Positions 3,090 through 31,579 of a DNA stretch of 64,000 nucleotides are shown one piece after another. Location of the stretch: the NCBI GenBank assembly GCA_964493665.1, contig CAZBOZ010000003.1, forward strand, positions 1,646 to 65,645. Direction: 5' to 3'. Position 1 is the stretch's first letter, and every line of letters starts with the position of its first letter. The notes below the pieces were generated by a model. It saw only the letters and a list, made by a program, of their open reading frames with translations, did no database searches and was not told the DNA's origin. This DNA comes from an uncultured Muribaculaceae bacterium. GTDB taxonomy: Bacteria; Bacillota_I; Bacilli_A; RF39; UBA660. The position numbers were made by a program, and so were the translations under genes.

Positions 3090-3509
3090 CTACAAGGCAT
3101 CAACATCTTCATCTTCTGGATCAATTATAACTAAATCTTTATATTCATCTTCTAAATCATCTTCATCTTCATTATCATCAAATGAGATATCTTCGTCTTC
3201 ATCATCTTCGTCACCATCCGGAAGTGGATCATCATCTTCATCATCTATTTCAATTTTTTTACTATGATTTATCCTTAAATCCCAATATCCGTTAGGAAGC
3301 ATTACAAATCTTTTATCAGTAGATAAAAGCTCAAAGAAATCAGCTATTTTATCTTCAAAATCTTTTTCAGTCAATCCCAAAAGATCACATATTCTTTTAA
3401 ATAGAGTTTGGATTTTCATCTTTTTTCCATATGATTTTAATATTGAAAAAGCTATATCATCATAAGCTAGTCTTTCTAATTCTTCTTTAGTTAATGTTTT
3501 TATATTCAT
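3090..3509 (-). CDS. rpoE: DNA-directed RNA polymerase delta subunit
   Basis: The N-terminal HARE-HTH-like region (LAYDDIAFSILKSYGKKMKIQTLFKRICDLLGLTEKDF...YWDLR) is followed by a long D/E-rich tail. This is the Firmicute RpoE architecture. Confidence 0.8.
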   Translation of the reverse strand: MNIKTLTKEELERLAYDDIAFSILKSYGKKMKIQTLFKRICDLLGLTEKDFEDKIADFFELLSTDKRFVMLPNGYWDLRINHSKKIEIDDEDDDPLPDGDEDDEDEDISFDDNEDEDDLEDEYKDLVIIDPEDEDVDAL

Positions 3510-3518
3510 TTTATCCTC

Positions 3519-5129
3519 CTACATTTTCTCTGGTGGGATTACCCCAATTAAATTTAAGGCATTGCCAAGAGTTATTTTTACAGCTTGAATTAAATTTAAA
3601 TTTTCAGCAGTTTCTAATGAATCCTCTGTTAATATGCGATGTTTTGAATAATATATATGAAACAAATTAGCTAGTTCATAAGCATAATTAGCTATTAAAT
3701 GTGGTAATTCTTTATTGGCAGCATCTTTTACTATTTCCGGAAAATAATAAATTTTTTCTAATAATTTGTAAGCATCCTCATTTTTTATATTTTTATATTC
3801 CGTTGTGTTAATTGCCGCTTTTGCTTCTTTTAAAACACTACATATTCTAGCATAAGCATAGCTGATATAAAAGACTGGATTTTCATTACTTTCTTTTTTA
3901 GCTAAATCTAGATCAAAATCCATTTGGGTGTCTAAGCTTTTTGAAATAAAAAAGTACCTGGCGGCGTTAACACCAACTTCATCAAGTAATTGTTTTAAAG
4001 TTACACTATTCCCTGCTCTCTTACTCATTCTATATTCTTGGTCGTCTTTTACTAATCTAACAAGTTGTAAGAGTTTAATGTCTATTTTAGAAATATCATG
4101 TCCTAATGCCTTTAAAGTTGATTTTATTACCGGAACATAGCCATGGTGATCAGCCCCTAGAACATTTATTAGTTTATCATAACCATCTTTCAAGGTGTTT
4201 AAATGATGAGCAATATCAGGAAGCACATAGGTATATTTGCCATCTGATTTTATTAAGACAAAATCACGAGGAGCTCCGAAAGATTTCCCTTTAAACCAAA
4301 CTGCTCCTTCACTTAAATAGGTGCTTTCATCATTTTTAAATTTAGTTAATATTTCTTCTATATAAGGCATTTTTTTAATGGCTTTCTCGCTGGTAAAAAC
4401 ATCATATTTTATTCTATAGTCATTCAAATCTGATATTATTCTGTCTAGTAATTTTTTAGTAGCGTATTCCTCAAAATAATCAAAATCATTACTCACTAAT
4501 TTTTGGCCTTCTTTTTCAAATAACTCATTAGCCAGCTTTTTAATGTCATCCCCAAAGTAACCATCCTTTGGCATTTCAGATGGAATACCACAAACCTCTA
4601 AGTAACGAGTTTTTAAAGATCTCCCTAAGTTAGCGATTTGATTACCAGAATCATTAACATAGTATTCCTTATTAACATCATAGCCATTAAAAGTATATAT
4701 CCGTGCTAAGCTATCTCCATAAGCTCCTCCTCTGGCATTGCCAAAATGAACTATTCCAGTCGGATTTGCGCTAACAAATTCAATATTTACTTTATGACCA
4801 GCACCATTTTCATTTGATCCATATTTATCTTTTTGATTTAAAACTTCATTAATATTTTCTAACAAATAGTTATTATTAACAAAGAAATTAATAAAACCAG
4901 GAGCTTTTACTTCTATTTTTTCTAACTCACTAGATGAAATAATTTCACTAATTTTATTAGCTAAATCCATTGGTTTTTGACTATTTTGGCCAGCTAATTT
5001 TAAAGCTATATTGGTTGTATAGTTACCATTATCAATTGATCCAGGAACGCTAACTACTATTTCCTCTTCACTATTTATAGATAATTTTTCTATGGCCGCT
5101 TTTATAGCTTGTCTGATTTTTTCTTTCAT
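3519..5129 (-). CDS. argS: arginine--tRNA ligase
   Basis: 536 aa. Has a class I HIGH-like motif (VHFGNARGG), a KMSKS-like motif (RMSKRAG) and a C-terminal DALR-type anticodon-binding region. Confidence 0.95.
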   Translation of the reverse strand: MKEKIRQAIKAAIEKLSINSEEEIVVSVPGSIDNGNYTTNIALKLAGQNSQKPMDLANKISEIISSSELEKIEVKAPGFINFFVNNNYLLENINEVLNQKDKYGSNENGAGHKVNIEFVSANPTGIVHFGNARGGAYGDSLARIYTFNGYDVNKEYYVNDSGNQIANLGRSLKTRYLEVCGIPSEMPKDGYFGDDIKKLANELFEKEGQKLVSNDFDYFEEYATKKLLDRIISDLNDYRIKYDVFTSEKAIKKMPYIEEILTKFKNDESTYLSEGAVWFKGKSFGAPRDFVLIKSDGKYTYVLPDIAHHLNTLKDGYDKLINVLGADHHGYVPVIKSTLKALGHDISKIDIKLLQLVRLVKDDQEYRMSKRAGNSVTLKQLLDEVGVNAARYFFISKSLDTQMDFDLDLAKKESNENPVFYISYAYARICSVLKEAKAAINTTEYKNIKNEDAYKLLEKIYYFPEIVKDAANKELPHLIANYAYELANLFHIYYSKHRILTEDSLETAENLNLIQAVKITLGNALNLIGVIPPEKM

Positions 5130-5231: not shown

Positions 5232-5258
5232 TAAAAAACTGAATATTTTTTATTCAGT
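5232..5258 (-). terminator. intrinsic terminator after the noc-like gene (stem overlaps the stop codon)
   Basis: Minus strand reads ACTGAATA-AAAAA-TATTCAGT followed by TTTTT. The stop codon at 5250-5252 lies inside the hairpin. Confidence 0.5.
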
Positions 5259-6530
5259 CTTCTTATCTATTTTTATTATTATTTGATATAAATTTTCCAA
5301 GTCTATCTCTTCAGTATCAACTAATAAGCCTTTTTCTTCAATAATCTTTACTGTATCTCTTAGCATATTAATAGCACTTTTTAATGAAAACTCCTCCATT
5401 TTTTCTTCTTGAGGTTTTGGTGGAATATACGATGGATCTAAAGTTTCTATTTTAGAAACCGGATCAATCACATTGTCCATGCTTAATGGTACCGATGGAA
5501 GATCAAGAATTTCTACTTCTTTTTCCTCTTTAGGCTCTACTACTGGTATAGAACTTGGTCCAGCTATTGGCTTATCAAGAATATTCATATTAGCTTCTTC
5601 ATCCTCTAAAAAGTTAAAAAACTTGTTAGGGGTTGGTGGGGTCGAAGGGTTTGGCATGCCACTTGCAGGAGCACTTGGAATGTCTGGTATGGCATTTAAG
5701 TTTGGCTCTTCAACAACTGCCTCTGAGACATCTGGTATTAATGGTTCCTCTTTTACTATTGGTTGTTCTGGAATAATAGGATTATTTGGCATTTGTCCTT
5801 CCGTTCTAAGCATTTGTTCTATTCCTAAAGTTTCTTTTTTAGGAGACAAATCTAATGCCGAATTTTTAATTTGATCAACACTAGGAGTTATTTCGACCAA
5901 AGGGGTATTATCCATTTTTTGGTCGTCTGATATTAAACTTTTTATTTCATCATCAAGTTGCCTAACAGTCCATCTTCCCTCTATTACTTTTCTTAATAAT
6001 TCTTTCTGTTTAGCAAAATCCTGGACTTTTAACATACTTCTAGCATGTCTTTCAGATATTTGTTCTTCTAACAAAGCTTTTTGAACTTCTTCGTCTAAAT
6101 TAAGTAGGCGTAGTCTGTTAGCAATAGTCGGCTGAGAAACCCCTATTCGCTTAGCTAGTTCTTCTTGGGTAACATAACCTCTATCCAGTAAAATCTTATA
6201 AGATTTTGCTTCTTCAATCGGAGTCAAAGACTTTCTTTGAACATTTTCAACTAAAGCAACTTCAGCACTACTGTTATCATCTAAACTAGTAATTATTGCT
6301 GGCACTTTTTGTAAACCTGCCATAATAGCAGCTTTATATCTTCTTTCGCCAGCTATTATTTCATACTTATTTCCGACTCTTCTTAAAACAAGCGGTTGTA
6401 TTATGCCGTGTTCTTTTATAGATGCAGCTAGTTCTTCCATAGCTTGCTCGTCAAATGTTAAACGTGGTTGAAACCTATTAGGAATTATTTCCTCGATTCC
6501 AATCTCCATTAATTGTGGCTCAAAATTCAT
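5250..6530 (-). CDS. noc: ParB/Spo0J/Noc-family DNA-binding protein, Noc-like (nucleoid occlusion), with a long Pro-rich internal linker
   Basis: Has the ParB box IIPNRFQPR, the GERRYKAA arginine patch and the HTH QEELAKRIGVSQPTIANRLRLLNL...ISERHARSML. It sits immediately downstream of rsmG, the noc position in B. subtilis. The PNRFQPR, Q-P-T-I-A-N, ERHAR and C-terminal ...LYQIIIKIDKK features resemble B. subtilis Noc rather than Spo0J, as I recall those sequences. Confidence 0.6.
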   Translation of the reverse strand: MNFEPQLMEIGIEEIIPNRFQPRLTFDEQAMEELAASIKEHGIIQPLVLRRVGNKYEIIAGERRYKAAIMAGLQKVPAIITSLDDNSSAEVALVENVQRKSLTPIEEAKSYKILLDRGYVTQEELAKRIGVSQPTIANRLRLLNLDEEVQKALLEEQISERHARSMLKVQDFAKQKELLRKVIEGRWTVRQLDDEIKSLISDDQKMDNTPLVEITPSVDQIKNSALDLSPKKETLGIEQMLRTEGQMPNNPIIPEQPIVKEEPLIPDVSEAVVEEPNLNAIPDIPSAPASGMPNPSTPPTPNKFFNFLEDEEANMNILDKPIAGPSSIPVVEPKEEKEVEILDLPSVPLSMDNVIDPVSKIETLDPSYIPPKPQEEKMEEFSLKSAINMLRDTVKIIEEKGLLVDTEEIDLENLYQIIIKIDKKTE

Positions 6531-6588: not shown

Positions 6589-7290
6589 TCAATTACTTTT
6601 TAATATTTCATTGTATTTTCTTGGATATCCTTTCGGTGTTTTAGCTCTTTTTTCAATAATTATTAAAGAACGATCATGATCTAAAATTGGAAGTTTATAC
6701 TTTATAACATCAATTGCTTTACCATTTAATAAATTGATTGTTTTCTCACTATTTTGAAGTTCTTCCCCTACTTTACCTTTCATCGCAATAAATAGCCCTT
6801 TTTCTTTTACTAATGGTAAAGATAATTCAGTTAGTATTCTTAAATCCGCTACCGCTCTTGATATAACTAATTCGAATCGATCAACGTTTTTTATAGCAAA
6901 GTCCTCGGCCCTTTCGTTTATGATTTCTACATTAGAAAGGTTCAATTCTTTTGTTATTACTTTTAAAAATTCACATTTTTTAGAATTAGATTCTATTAAA
7001 TATAAATGAAGATCAGGATTAAATATTTTTAACACTAATCCAGGAAACCCTGCCCCTGTACCAATATCTACCAATTCTCGATAATCACTTATATTAAAAT
7101 AATTGCACGGCAGAAGAGAATCACAAAAATGTTTCAAATATATTTCTTTGGTTCCTTCTATGGAAGTTAAATTAAACTTTTTGTTGTATTCTTGTAATAA
7201 AACAACATATTTTTTTAAATCTTCTAGCATTTTTTCAGTACAAGGTATATTGCTAGCTTCTAAAAATTTAATAAATTCTTTTTCAGTCAT
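6589..7290 (-). CDS. rsmG: 16S rRNA (guanine527-N7)-methyltransferase
   Basis: SAM motif DIGTGAGFPGL, 233 aa. Sits in the conserved mnmE-mnmG-rsmG order. Confidence 0.9.
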   Translation of the reverse strand: MTEKEFIKFLEASNIPCTEKMLEDLKKYVVLLQEYNKKFNLTSIEGTKEIYLKHFCDSLLPCNYFNISDYRELVDIGTGAGFPGLVLKIFNPDLHLYLIESNSKKCEFLKVITKELNLSNVEIINERAEDFAIKNVDRFELVISRAVADLRILTELSLPLVKEKGLFIAMKGKVGEELQNSEKTINLLNGKAIDVIKYKLPILDHDRSLIIIEKRAKTPKGYPRKYNEILKSN

Positions 7291-10541: not shown

Positions 10542-10570
10542 ATTATAACACGAAATTATTTCCCGGGAAA
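10542..10570 (-). promoter_or_regulatory. candidate extended -10 promoter of the mnmE-mnmG-rsmG-noc gene string
   Basis: Minus strand reads TGTTATAAT (TGnTATAAT) with the -10 hexamer at 10542-10547. The -35 position (10565-10570, TTTCCC) is poor and falls inside the NBS palindrome. Confidence 0.4.
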
Positions 10571-10571
10571 T
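10558..10571. promoter_or_regulatory. Noc-binding-site-type palindrome ATTTCCCGGGAAAT (within the 22-nt palindrome 10554-10575)
   Basis: Exact match to the published B. subtilis NBS consensus ATTTCCCGGGAAAT. The flanks extend the palindrome to AATTATTTCCCGGGAAATAATT. Confidence 0.6.
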
Positions 10572-15437: not shown

Positions 15438-15519
15438 ATTTTAAAACTAAAATTCGCCATAAATCGTCTTTTAAAAATGCTTTAATAAAAGGCAAATTTA
15501 AAAGAAGGAGGTGGATTTG

Positions 15520-15969
15520 ATGAACGAATATGAAGTTAATTCTAAAACACTGGCGATTGTTTCATTGTCTTCTCAAAAATCAAAAATATACGAAGACTCT
15601 AATATATTTGTTGTTAATAAGTCAGCTACTAAGATAATGGAAGATAGCTGTCAATTTTTTGGAAGTTCTTTGTTGGGGCGTCAGAAGGGAACAAATAATT
15701 TAATAGGAGTTACCCATAAGGCTCCAATAATAGTAGAAGAAAGTAGAGAAATAATCTTTTTTCCGACTTTATCCCCAAGAAAAAACTCTTGTTCCTGGAT
15801 AGCTTTAAAGAATATTGCTAGTTATTATGACAAAGATCAGAATGTTTATATTAAATTTAAAAATAATGTTCAACTAGAATTAGACATTTCTTATGGAGTG
15901 GTAGACAATCAAGTTTTAAGAGCTACGAGATTAGAATCAGTATTAAGAAACAGAAAAATGGAAAAATAG
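15520..15969 (+). CDS. comK: ComK-family competence transcription factor homolog
   Basis: Start moved to the ATG 9 nt after the GGAGG RBS. Motifs shared with B. subtilis ComK as I recall it: YEVN..T.A, SC.FFGSS..GR..GT, HK.PI.V, FPT.S......W, ISY....NQV.R. Short at 149 aa. Confidence 0.7.
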   Translation: MNEYEVNSKTLAIVSLSSQKSKIYEDSNIFVVNKSATKIMEDSCQFFGSSLLGRQKGTNNLIGVTHKAPIIVEESREIIFFPTLSPRKNSCSWIALKNIASYYDKDQNVYIKFKNNVQLELDISYGVVDNQVLRATRLESVLRNRKMEK

Positions 15970-21505: not shown

Positions 21506-21538
21506 AAAACAATGTTTCACGTGAAACATTGTTTTTTT
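21506..21538 (+). terminator. gyrA terminator hairpin formed by the 30-nt perfect palindrome that contains parS-1
   Basis: AAAACAATGTTTCAC|GTGAAACATTGTTTT is followed by further T residues and begins 3 nt after the gyrA stop. Confidence 0.6.
21513..21528. promoter_or_regulatory. parS site 1 (TGTTTCACGTGAAACA)
   Basis: Perfect 16-bp palindromic match to the Firmicute parS consensus TGTTNCACGTGAAACA. Confidence 0.8.
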
Positions 21539-21549
21539 GTTCGCAAATT

Positions 21550-21563
21550 ATTTCCCGGGAAAT
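21550..21563. promoter_or_regulatory. Noc-binding-site-type palindrome ATTTCCCGGGAAAT (within the 24-nt palindrome 21545-21568)
   Basis: Exact NBS consensus. The same extended core AATTATTTCCCGGGAAATAATT occurs at 10554-10575. Confidence 0.6.
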
Positions 21564-21572
21564 AATTTCTAA

Positions 21573-21588
21573 TGTTTCACGTGAAACA
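21573..21588. promoter_or_regulatory. parS site 2 (TGTTTCACGTGAAACA)
   Basis: Perfect 16-bp match to the parS consensus. Confidence 0.8.
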
Positions 21589-21735
21589 TAACAATTAAAA
21601 AACACATAAATATCGCTATTTCACTTTTTAAAAATTAAAGATTAAATGAGCCACAATTAAATAATTGTATTTAACGCAATTGAAAACTAATAAAAATGTT
21701 TTGAGTTTTGTATAGATGACAAATTATTAAAACAA

Positions 21736-21751
21736 TGTTTCACGTGAAACA
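21736..21751. promoter_or_regulatory. parS site 3 (TGTTTCACGTGAAACA)
   Basis: Perfect 16-bp match. The 31-nt block ATTAAAACAATGTTTCACGTGAAACATTGTT (21726-21756) is identical to 21503-21533. Confidence 0.8.
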
Positions 21752-21878: not shown

Positions 21879-22304
21879 ATGAATAATAGATTTTTTAATG
21901 ATGCTTTGAATGAATCTTTTAAAGCCGAAAAAAAACAAAGTGTTCCAGTAGGAGCAGTGTTAGTAAAAAATAATAAAATAATTTCTAGGGCTCATAATAT
22001 AAACTATAAGTCAAATATGGTAATTGATCATGCCGAAATAATATGTATTAAAAAGGCCGTTAAAAAAAGCAATGATTGGCGATTAGATGATTTTGATATG
22101 TATGTTACATTAGAACCATGTGATATGTGCAAAGAGGTGATAAAGGCTTCAAGAATTAAAAATGTTTTTTATCTTTTACCAAAAAATAGTAAAGTTTGCA
22201 AACAGCAAACAAAATTTATTAAAGCTATAAACGTTACTGATGTTGATACTAAGCTGGGAGAAAATAAACTAAAAAGTTTTTTTAAAAAGCTAAGACAGAA
22301 ATAA
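21879..22304 (+). CDS. tadA: tRNA-specific adenosine deaminase
   Basis: CDA zinc motifs HAE (DHAEIICI) and PCxxC (EPCDMC). 141 aa. Confidence 0.85.
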   Translation: MNNRFFNDALNESFKAEKKQSVPVGAVLVKNNKIISRAHNINYKSNMVIDHAEIICIKKAVKKSNDWRLDDFDMYVTLEPCDMCKEVIKASRIKNVFYLLPKNSKVCKQQTKFIKAINVTDVDTKLGENKLKSFFKKLRQK

Positions 22305-31033: not shown

Positions 31034-31579
31034 ATGGTTAAAAAAGTATTTAATTTTTTACAAATTAGCTTAAAAGTTTTTTTAATTTTAACAGCTGTTT
31101 TAATAGTCCAAAATAGTTCTCGAAAAATAGAAAATAAAGTTGAAAACATTAATTTAAATAAAACTCTAGATTTAGCGGCAATGACAAGAGCAAGCTCAAC
31201 AACGTATGAAGCCGAAGAAATACTTAGAGTTATTGTTGGAGATTTAACTGGATATGCCGCTGATTGCCCTAAATGTACTGGCTTTGTAGGCTGCAAGCCG
31301 TATTTAGATGTTAGAGATGGAACAACAACATATAATGACAAAGTATATGGTGAAGTAAGAATTGTGGCTGCTTCTCCTAAAAACTTAAAATGCGGTAGTA
31401 TAATTACATTTGTTTCTTTAAGAATATCAAAAGATCCTGTAATAGCTATAGTTTTAGATAGGGGAGTAACGGGAACTAGCATAGATTTACTAACAGAAAC
31501 CGAAGCTTTTGCTTCCAAGTATGTTGGCCGTAGTGAAATAGCTTACACAGTTTTAAGAGAAGGATGGGAAAGTGAGTAA
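31034..31579 (+). CDS. secreted 3D-domain (MltA-like double-psi barrel) protein, YabE/StlA-like C-terminus
   Basis: N-terminal TM/signal segment. C-terminal region GDLTGYAADCPKCTG...VAASP..LKCGSIITF...IAIVLDRGVTGTSIDLL resembles 3D domains. Its position between tatD and rsmA matches B. subtilis yabE. Confidence 0.6.
   Translation: MVKKVFNFLQISLKVFLILTAVLIVQNSSRKIENKVENINLNKTLDLAAMTRASSTTYEAEEILRVIVGDLTGYAADCPKCTGFVGCKPYLDVRDGTTTYNDKVYGEVRIVAASPKNLKCGSIITFVSLRISKDPVIAIVLDRGVTGTSIDLLTETEAFASKYVGRSEIAYTVLREGWESE

Follow-up and report, generated by a model that had tools for sequence, protein, structure and literature searches.

A 64-kb stretch of contig CAZBOZ010000003.1 (the window), which contains a Firmicute-type replication origin, carries directly after rsmG a gene for a ParB-family protein of 426 amino acids. 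The locus raises the questions whether this protein is a Noc or a ParB/Spo0J, what has taken the place of the N-terminal membrane helix of Noc, which it lacks, and which DNA sites it reads. It belongs to a subfamily of the Noc lineage that is widespread in RF39-type gut Bacilli, with a rewired effector region and with composite arrays of parS and Noc-binding sites (NBS) at the origin. Sequence comparisons strongly support its assignment to the Noc lineage, as the counterpart of Noc in the usual place after rsmG and not as a ParB/Spo0J. To the explanation that we favour as a whole, a Noc-lineage clamp with a conserved linker peptide as replacement effector, we give about an even chance of being right.

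The gene (5250-6530, minus strand) is a maximal open reading frame (ORF) of 426 codons plus the stop codon, starting with ATG, with rsmG (6589-7290) upstream and argS (3519-5129) downstream. A ribosome-binding site, AAAGGGG, precedes the ATG, and in-frame TAA stops are located immediately 5' of it. Because the ORF is maximal and is preceded by in-frame TAA, the missing N-terminal extension is real and does not result from the choice of the start codon. Sixteen residues stand ahead of the ParB box, and the amphipathic helix formed by residues 1-10 of Noc, on which the function of B. subtilis Noc depends, is absent. In a tblastn search of the 64-kb window, Soj, Spo0J and Noc of B. subtilis matched a single locus, and neither Soj nor a second ParB was found. 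These results agree with the first-pass annotation of this DNA, which had described a 426-residue ORF lacking the N-terminal membrane helix, in the noc slot directly after rsmG, with argS next and without soj-spo0J: all motifs quoted there are present in the translation, the placement is borne out by the gene order and by tblastn, and the loss of the helix by the upstream stops and by the same state in the relatives.

The B. subtilis reference sequences used for comparison were checked against solved structures: residues 21-282 of Spo0J are identical to PDB entries 6SDK and 5NOC, and residues 28-230 of Noc to 7OL9. Among solved structures the best sequence match of the window protein is Geobacillus thermoleovorans Noc (196 bits), followed by B. 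subtilis Noc (171 bits) and B. subtilis Spo0J (166 bits), and the top Foldseek match of the model is apo-Noc of G. thermoleovorans (7NFU, E = 9e-21). With the profile TIGR04285 (nucleoid_noc) the protein scored 280 bits, as compared to 174 with parB_part. When the linker was cut out, the TIGR04285 score was 293, and the match extended over positions 2-255 of the 255-position model, the C-terminal domain included. The control values were 373 for B. subtilis Noc and 257 for B. subtilis Spo0J, with the window protein between them. The difference between the TIGR04285 and the parB_part scores was +106 to +117 for the window protein, +154 for B. subtilis Noc and +30 for B. subtilis Spo0J.

A neighbour-joining tree was built from the first 205 residues (205 columns) of 26 diverse long-linker relatives (long forms), two Noc and three ParB references. 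The long forms were monophyletic in 100% of the bootstrap replicates and sister to the two Noc references in 99%, with Spo0J/ParB outside. Structure matches, profile scores, the C-terminal domain and the tree, in which the long forms could have fallen among the ParB proteins and fell with Noc, all uphold the earlier description of the protein as Noc-like rather than Spo0J-like. Two points weigh on the other side: the curated NCBIfam cut-off of TIGR04285 (315 bits) is reached neither with the linker nor without it, and the reference set of the tree was small.

The window protein shares with Spo0J/ParB of Firmicutes (PDB 6SDK, 5NOC) the fold, the cytidine triphosphate (CTP) motifs and about 45% identity over the N-terminal and helix-turn-helix (HTH) domains. 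Over the first 200 residues the identity to B. subtilis Spo0J (45-46%) equals that to B. subtilis Noc, the relatives are annotated by NCBI as 'ParB/RepB/Spo0J family partition protein', and perfect parS sites are present in the window, all of which would fit a chromosomal ParB/Spo0J of the ordinary kind from which the ParA partner has been lost. However, at the positions of the R and G of ParB the window protein has Q133 and R161, the N-terminal peptide through which ParB interacts with and stimulates ParA is absent, as is an adjacent soj, and the C-terminal domain is like that of Noc and unlike that of Spo0J. Only 1% of the bootstrap replicates grouped the window protein with Spo0J, against the 99% for Noc. 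We regard this interpretation as very improbable.

The same organization was found throughout the family. The best 120 homologues listed were all 385-617 amino acids long, and those representing the best 150 of the 50%-identity clusters were nearly all between 340 and 678 amino acids (totals 336-678). Apart from a few probably mis-called starts, the proteins begin 13-20 residues before the ParB box, and none of the 262 relatives examined has the N-terminal helix of Noc. Every full-length member, in at least 150 diverged clusters, keeps a linker longer than 130 residues; the close relatives thus retain the insertion, whose absence from them would have spoken against the first-pass reading. The gene follows rsmG in the relatives (86 loci from GTDB genomes and assemblies), and within 10 kb of it no Soj or second ParB was detected in these 86 loci. 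The relatives come from uncultured Bacilli, Tenericutes and Mycoplasma sp., Ca. Coprovivens, Ca. Onthocola, Ca. Ventrenecus, Firmicutes CAG:460 and others, of which Ca. Coprovivens belongs to the GTDB order RF39 (PMC8035907). They carry genes for penicillin-binding proteins, MurA-type genes, SpoIIR and ComK and are therefore walled. In the literature searched (outside subscription journals) neither the long-linker form of Noc nor the interleaving of parS and NBS is described.

The protein consists of three folded domains and a long linker, all encoded on the minus strand. The N-terminal CTP-binding domain (residues 6-98, 6237-6515; Pfam PF02195 ParB_N, E = 1.6e-33) has the motifs IIPNRFQPR (15-23), GERRYKAA (61-68) and ENVQR, of which GERRYKA and ENVQR, corresponding to GERRxRA and ENLQR of Noc, are kept across the family, and was modelled by AlphaFold with a predicted local distance difference test score (pLDDT) of about 90. 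It is followed by the HTH_ParB DNA-binding domain (residues 101-199, 5934-6230; Pfam PF17762) with the motifs VSQPTIANRLRLLNL (131-145) and ISERHARSML (158-167). The C-terminal domain (residues 378-426, 5253-5399) is of the dimerisation type, Noc-like with one helix and two strands, has a pLDDT of 91-96, aligns to the C-terminus of B. subtilis Noc and ends in YQIIIKIDKKTE. AlphaFold was run with 29 and with 64 sequences; the three domains were confident and the linker disordered in both runs.

With Noc of B. subtilis and G. thermoleovorans (TIGR04285; PDB 7NFU, 7NG0, 7OL9, 6Y93) the window protein has in common the place after rsmG, the ParB-fold CTP-binding domain, an HTH with Q173, K/R179 and R201 (Noc numbering), canonical NBS in the genome, the Noc-type C-terminal domain and the sister position in the tree. 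It differs by the lack of alpha1, the amphipathic membrane helix, and of the acidic alpha2, so that it starts approximately where NocNdelta26 does, by N in place of K at position 184, by its score below the NCBIfam cut-off and by the clustering of NBS with parS at the origin in its clade. The largest difference is in the segment between the DNA-binding and the C-terminal domain, which in Noc is a basic linker of about 20 residues, whereas here it is acidic, disordered and about 170 residues long (130-400 in the family), and contains an internal conserved peptide, NKFFNFLEDE.

With 17% Pro and 12% Glu and a pLDDT mostly below 55, the linker (residues 206-376, 5403-5915) corresponds to the Pro/Glu-rich low-complexity segment of about 170 residues that had been reported at first pass. 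No tandem repeats were found in the linker DNA. Linkers of the relatives cannot be aligned apart from short islands; their charge is negative throughout (median -0.16 per residue, range -0.05 to -0.25 in 257 proteins), as compared to +0.25 in the linker of B. subtilis Noc (sequence checked against 7OL9).

The most conserved element of the linker family-wide is the peptide NKFFNFLEDEEANMN (residues 302-316, 5583-5627), a candidate effector element, in which NKFFNFLEDEE makes up residues 302-312. The FF look-alike motif pointed out in the first-pass annotation is thus present, and not by chance: 77% of 257 linkers and 58% of 50%-identity representatives contain [KR]FF, versus 2% of shuffles. None of 29 homologues (50-73% identity) deviates at F304, F305, N306 or E311, the family logo reads [N/G][K/R]FF[N/T/S][F/P/L][L/F]E[D/E]E..NMN, and in 30 of the 257 proteins N-K-F-F is present two or three times. 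Outside the Noc-like ORFs the motif was not found in 2.1 Mb of related loci. The TadA-like deaminase encoded 3' of the parS/NBS array described below begins with MNNRFFND (21879-21920, plus strand), similar to N-[K/R]-F-F-N; as TadA is an ordinary deaminase, a shared motif was rejected and the similarity judged a coincidence.

Three further islands were found in the linker, of which the first and the third reach a pLDDT of about 60-75. Island 1 (residues 208-228, 5847-5909), NTPLVEITPSVDQIKNSALDL, follows the pattern PLV..P.ID.IK..A.D in the 29 homologues, where P210 and D227 do not vary and P216, I221 and A225 hardly do; it has a pLDDT of about 70 and a short helix at 218-224. The second is VEILD (residues 339-343, 5502-5516). 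The third, DPVSKIETLDPSY (residues 356-368, 5427-5465), lies directly ahead of the C-terminal domain, with D356 and P357 conserved and a pLDDT of 61-70.

The conservation of these islands bears on the possibility that the linker is a neutral low-complexity expansion, as in AT-rich reduced genomes, and the protein a membrane-independent clamp or local regulator that has lost the nucleoid occlusion function. The high variability of the linker in length and sequence (the total lengths given above), its predicted disorder and the absence of [KR]FF from about a quarter of the long forms would be compatible with neutrality. In contrast, a linker of more than 130 residues persists in all full-length members across the at least 150 diverged clusters, several islands are conserved far above background, and the net acidity is uniform, within the range of -0.05 to -0.25 per residue. 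We consider a neutral linker improbable.

What, then, could the peptide do? The first-pass annotation had proposed an internal membrane tether. Of this proposal the amphipathicity stood up: within the linker, the ten-residue hydrophobic moment (mean 0.29, standard deviation 0.15) peaks at the peptide, with 0.59-0.70. These values are comparable with the 0.56 calculated for residues 1-10 of B. subtilis Noc; the sequence used for residues 1-27 of this Noc is consistent with the mutants at K2, S4 and F5 that are described in PMC8429893. The predicted helix and the charge did not bear the proposal out, as AlphaFold gave little or no helix and the peptide is net acidic. A membrane anchor is further favoured by the consideration that the function of the ancestor needs membrane contact and that all members are without the N-terminal helix.

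The known membrane helices offer a parallel. The helix of Noc (MKHSFSRFFG; SRFFGLGEKE) and that of SepF (residues 1-12) share with the linker peptide a basic residue, FF and hydrophobic residues followed by an acidic run, and have a similar ten-residue hydrophobic moment. The SepF helix ends in F10-F11; the acidic MEDEE comes next in SepF. Strong conservation of the peptide would be compatible with a lipid anchor, since the N-terminus of canonical Noc is extremely conserved and yet can be replaced by a foreign helix (Adams et al. 2015, PMC4331003).

Several observations speak against a membrane anchor. With lysine as its one basic residue, the peptide is net acidic (-2 to -3) and is surrounded by an acidic linker, whereas the membrane helices of Noc and SepF are net positive, as are those of MinD and FtsA. 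The Noc and SepF helices are N-terminal and have basic residues upstream of FF, whereas the linker peptide is internal, with prolines upstream and a conserved, acidic extension downstream. In some subfamilies a Pro occurs inside the peptide (KFFNPLESEP, RFIPLFEDEE). In the AlphaFold run with 64 sequences neither a helix nor docking was seen at the motif (pLDDT about 50); with 29 sequences there was a four-residue helix (307-310, pLDDT about 53). Because of the missing helix and the low pLDDT in the 64-sequence run, the models lend no support to a stable or docked peptide in the monomer. About 90 of the 257 proteins, all distant long forms, have a partial motif or none, and 59 of the 257 are without any [KR]FF. 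The invariant polar residues N306, E311 and N314 look more like a sequence-specific protein interface. Added negative charge is known to abolish membrane binding by the Noc helix (Adams et al. 2015, PMC4331003). On balance, relocation of the membrane tether to the linker peptide seems plausible, with a likelihood somewhat short of even.

Much of the same evidence suits a peptide that would dock, as a short linear motif, on a protein partner instead of binding lipid, with the same loading on DNA and with the acidic spacer as a long flexible arm presenting the motif. Near-identity over 10-15 residues within a disordered, fast-evolving acidic linker is the classic appearance of such motifs; the invariant N306, E311 and N314, the net negative charge, the Pro tolerated within the peptide in some clades and the lack of an autonomous helix in AlphaFold fit as well, and the preferred NBS/parS spacings of 26-29 and 35-37 bp (see below) would suit contact with ParB-bound complexes. 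FtsA, SepF, FtsZ, DnaN, SMC, canonical ParB or the protein's own N-terminal domain might be the partner. These are candidates only, however, and as the motif occurs in no other ORF of the 2.1 Mb, there is no clue from a shared motif; moreover, the minimal element that is broadly kept is just [N/G][K/R]FF, sometimes repeated, which is closer to a generic interfacial anchor, and for B. subtilis Noc no protein partner is known, although partners have been sought (PMC4331003). Mimicry of the C-terminal tail of FtsZ and a beta-clamp-binding motif were also considered and set aside, since the pattern does not seem to fit these consensus motifs (no Q; acidic, not basic, after FL). Taken by itself, docking to a partner appears possible, with a probability well under one half, and it is nearly as likely as the membrane tether.

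In the explanation that we favour, the Noc-lineage clamp, as expected from its family, would load on NBS in a CTP-dependent manner and would slide and spread on the flanking DNA, while the linker peptide would act as the effector that replaces the lost N-terminal module. Its K-F-F-x-F-L part may be a weak in-plane membrane anchor that gains avidity from many clamps on one DNA. Its acidic part would take the role of the acidic segment after the Noc helix (SRFFGLGEKEQE). In apo-Noc, alpha1 and alpha2 dock on Q66 and R86 at the CTP pocket of the N-terminal domain (PMC8429893), which suggests what the conserved acidic half might do: it could dock in a similar manner on the N-terminal domain, at the basic face of the CTP pocket. 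Because the NBS sites of the clade are concentrated by oriC, where they alternate with parS, it would probably be chiefly the origin region that is brought to the envelope, along with a ParB encoded separately and bound at parS.

A long flexible region between the DNA-binding and the dimerisation domains is presumably also present in KorB of plasmid RK2. This protein (PDB 8QA8) is likewise a CTP clamp of the ParB family and a precedent for clamp functions other than partition, but it is only 24% identical to the window protein (Foldseek) and has another DNA site and other partners.

The specificity of Noc and ParB for their DNA sites is set by four residues, R173, T179, A184 and G201 in ParB and Q, K, K and R in Noc (Jalal et al. 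2020, PMC7383237). The two bases that tell NBS from parS are read by Q173 and R201, beside which one K or R at 179 or 184 suffices as the permissive residue (PMC7383237). Mapped against QKKR of B. subtilis Noc and RHTG of B. subtilis Spo0J, the corresponding residues of the window protein are Q133, R139, N144 and R161: N144 replaces K184 of Noc, and the other three classes match Noc. In 242 relatives the combination Q-K-N-R was found 207 times; every relative has the Q, and a single one lacks the R. In the supplementary data searched of Jalal et al. 2020 (PMC7383237), the QKNR, QRNR and QKAR variants were not found. Since one K or R at 179 or 184 is sufficient alongside Q and R, the window protein, with R139 as the permissive basic residue, is predicted to bind NBS. 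The R and the N that had been noticed at two HTH positions in place of the Noc residues are indeed there (R139, N144), but the shifted or broadened specificity suspected from them is not supported, given that a single K/R is enough, Q-K-N-R is the rule in the family, NBS are kept in the clade and parS and NBS remain discrete.

Two perfect NBS sites (consensus TATTTCCCGGGAAATA), both extended to AATTATTTCCCGGGAAATAATT, are present in the window. One of them (10558-10571; core ATTTCCCGGGAAAT) lies in the intergenic region between jag and mnmE, and recurs at this position in 18 of 54 related loci (for example, in L005 at 3181 and in L006 at 5967). In 1.39 Mb of related loci there were 30 perfect NBS, 19 of them between jag and mnmE, versus 0.003 expected. 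The loci collected first (about 50% identity) had neither parS nor NBS, whereas closer relatives and 80 GTDB loci had NBS and no parS; in the 80 GTDB loci parS was not seen because these loci end before gyrA.

The second NBS of the window belongs to a composite array (21513-21751) in the 280-bp gap between gyrA and the signal recognition particle (SRP) RNA, upstream of tadA. The array consists of an NBS (21550-21563) and the three perfect parS sites of the window (TGTTTCACGTGAAACA; 21513-21528, 21573-21588 and 21736-21751). A metagenome scan for parS 5-35 bp from NBS, with seeding pairs limited to a distance of 20-50 bp, yielded at least 120 contigs with such arrays, almost all of them with a GC content of 19-31%, with a median of five and a maximum of 16 sites per mixed cluster. 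The syntenic position is the same: 82 of these contigs have a GyrA homologue and 88 a TadA homologue, with 50-80% identity to the proteins of the window. Among 688 general-form sites, 390 were pure parS and 288 pure NBS, and hybrids were essentially absent. The distances between parS and NBS centres peaked at 26-29 and 35-37 bp, within the 20-50 bp to which the seeding pairs were restricted. Two array contigs, L145 and L200, had GC contents of 0.38 and 0.48, far above the others, and the parS/NBS juxtaposition may also exist outside the RF39-like clade.

No second ParB and no Soj were found in the regions read of the 120 array-bearing contigs or of one further assembly of the same locus. Although no parS-binding ParB or Soj/ParA was seen in these regions, the perfect parS sites persist. 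The two discrete classes of sites, together with Q133 and R161 of the window protein, argue for a separate parS-reading ParB, probably encoded elsewhere in the genome.

The same absence could mean instead that the protein is the sole ParB-family member of reduced genomes and has dual specificity, loading at both parS and NBS and merging the functions of ParB (SMC loading, origin organisation) and Noc. This would be in line with the lack of a second ParB or Soj in the 64-kb window, within 10 kb in the 86 loci and in the 120 array contigs, with the tight interleaving of parS and NBS in conserved arrays, and with a residue other than the Noc lysine at position 184. However, in a deep mutational scan parS binders invariably had R173 and dual-specific variants mostly S or T at 201 (PMC7383237), whereas the family has Q173 and R201. 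In addition, the virtual absence of hybrid half-sites among the 390 parS and 288 NBS fits two readers and not one tolerant reader. A dual-specific protein is, in our judgement, quite unlikely, even slightly more so than a neutral linker.

The conserved interleaving of parS and NBS by the origin suggests functional coupling of the two paralogous clamps. We tentatively consider that the arrays could be composite centromeres, in which alternating parS and NBS by oriC would co-load a canonical ParB, encoded elsewhere, and the long-linker Noc. Noc would then be an origin tether rather than a genome-wide nucleoid-occlusion factor, and the conserved peptide on its long acidic arm would fasten the ParB-organised origin region either to the membrane or to a protein of the division machinery or the pole. 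This is a rather unlikely extension of the favoured explanation; if true, the arrays would possibly represent a ParA-independent device for origin anchoring and segregation.

The RF39-type hosts are abundant and uncultured, and the long-linker family is previously undescribed: a large natural family that dropped the N-terminal module of Noc and bears a look-alike peptide on a long disordered arm. If the peptide binds the membrane, the family shows how much rewiring the switch tolerates; if it binds a protein, no earlier member of the Noc lineage would have had a partner of its own. In the databases, thousands of proteins of RF39 gut bacteria that carry only the generic ParB partition label could be reassigned to the Noc lineage.

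In the window, the sign of the GC skew flips at approximately 12-14 kb. As assigned by Pfam, the genes on the minus strand are, in order, prmC, prfA, a gene for a 139-residue acidic protein, argS, the noc-like gene, rsmG, mnmG, mnmE, jag, yidC and rnpA, and those following rnpA on the plus strand are dnaA, dnaN, comK, recF, gyrB, gyrA, the SRP RNA, tadA, dnaX, recR and holB, with further genes beyond. A 181-residue ORF after tatD (31034-31579, plus strand) had no Pfam match at E <= 1e-5. The same was true for the 139-residue protein encoded between argS and prfA (3090-3509, minus strand), the C-terminal half of which is extremely rich in Asp and Glu; it may be similar to the delta subunit of RNA polymerase, and the relatives have an unannotated gene for 139-146 residues in the same position. 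The ComK-family gene (15511-15969, plus strand) lies between dnaN and recF and was found in the same position in relatives (L001, L003 and L006).

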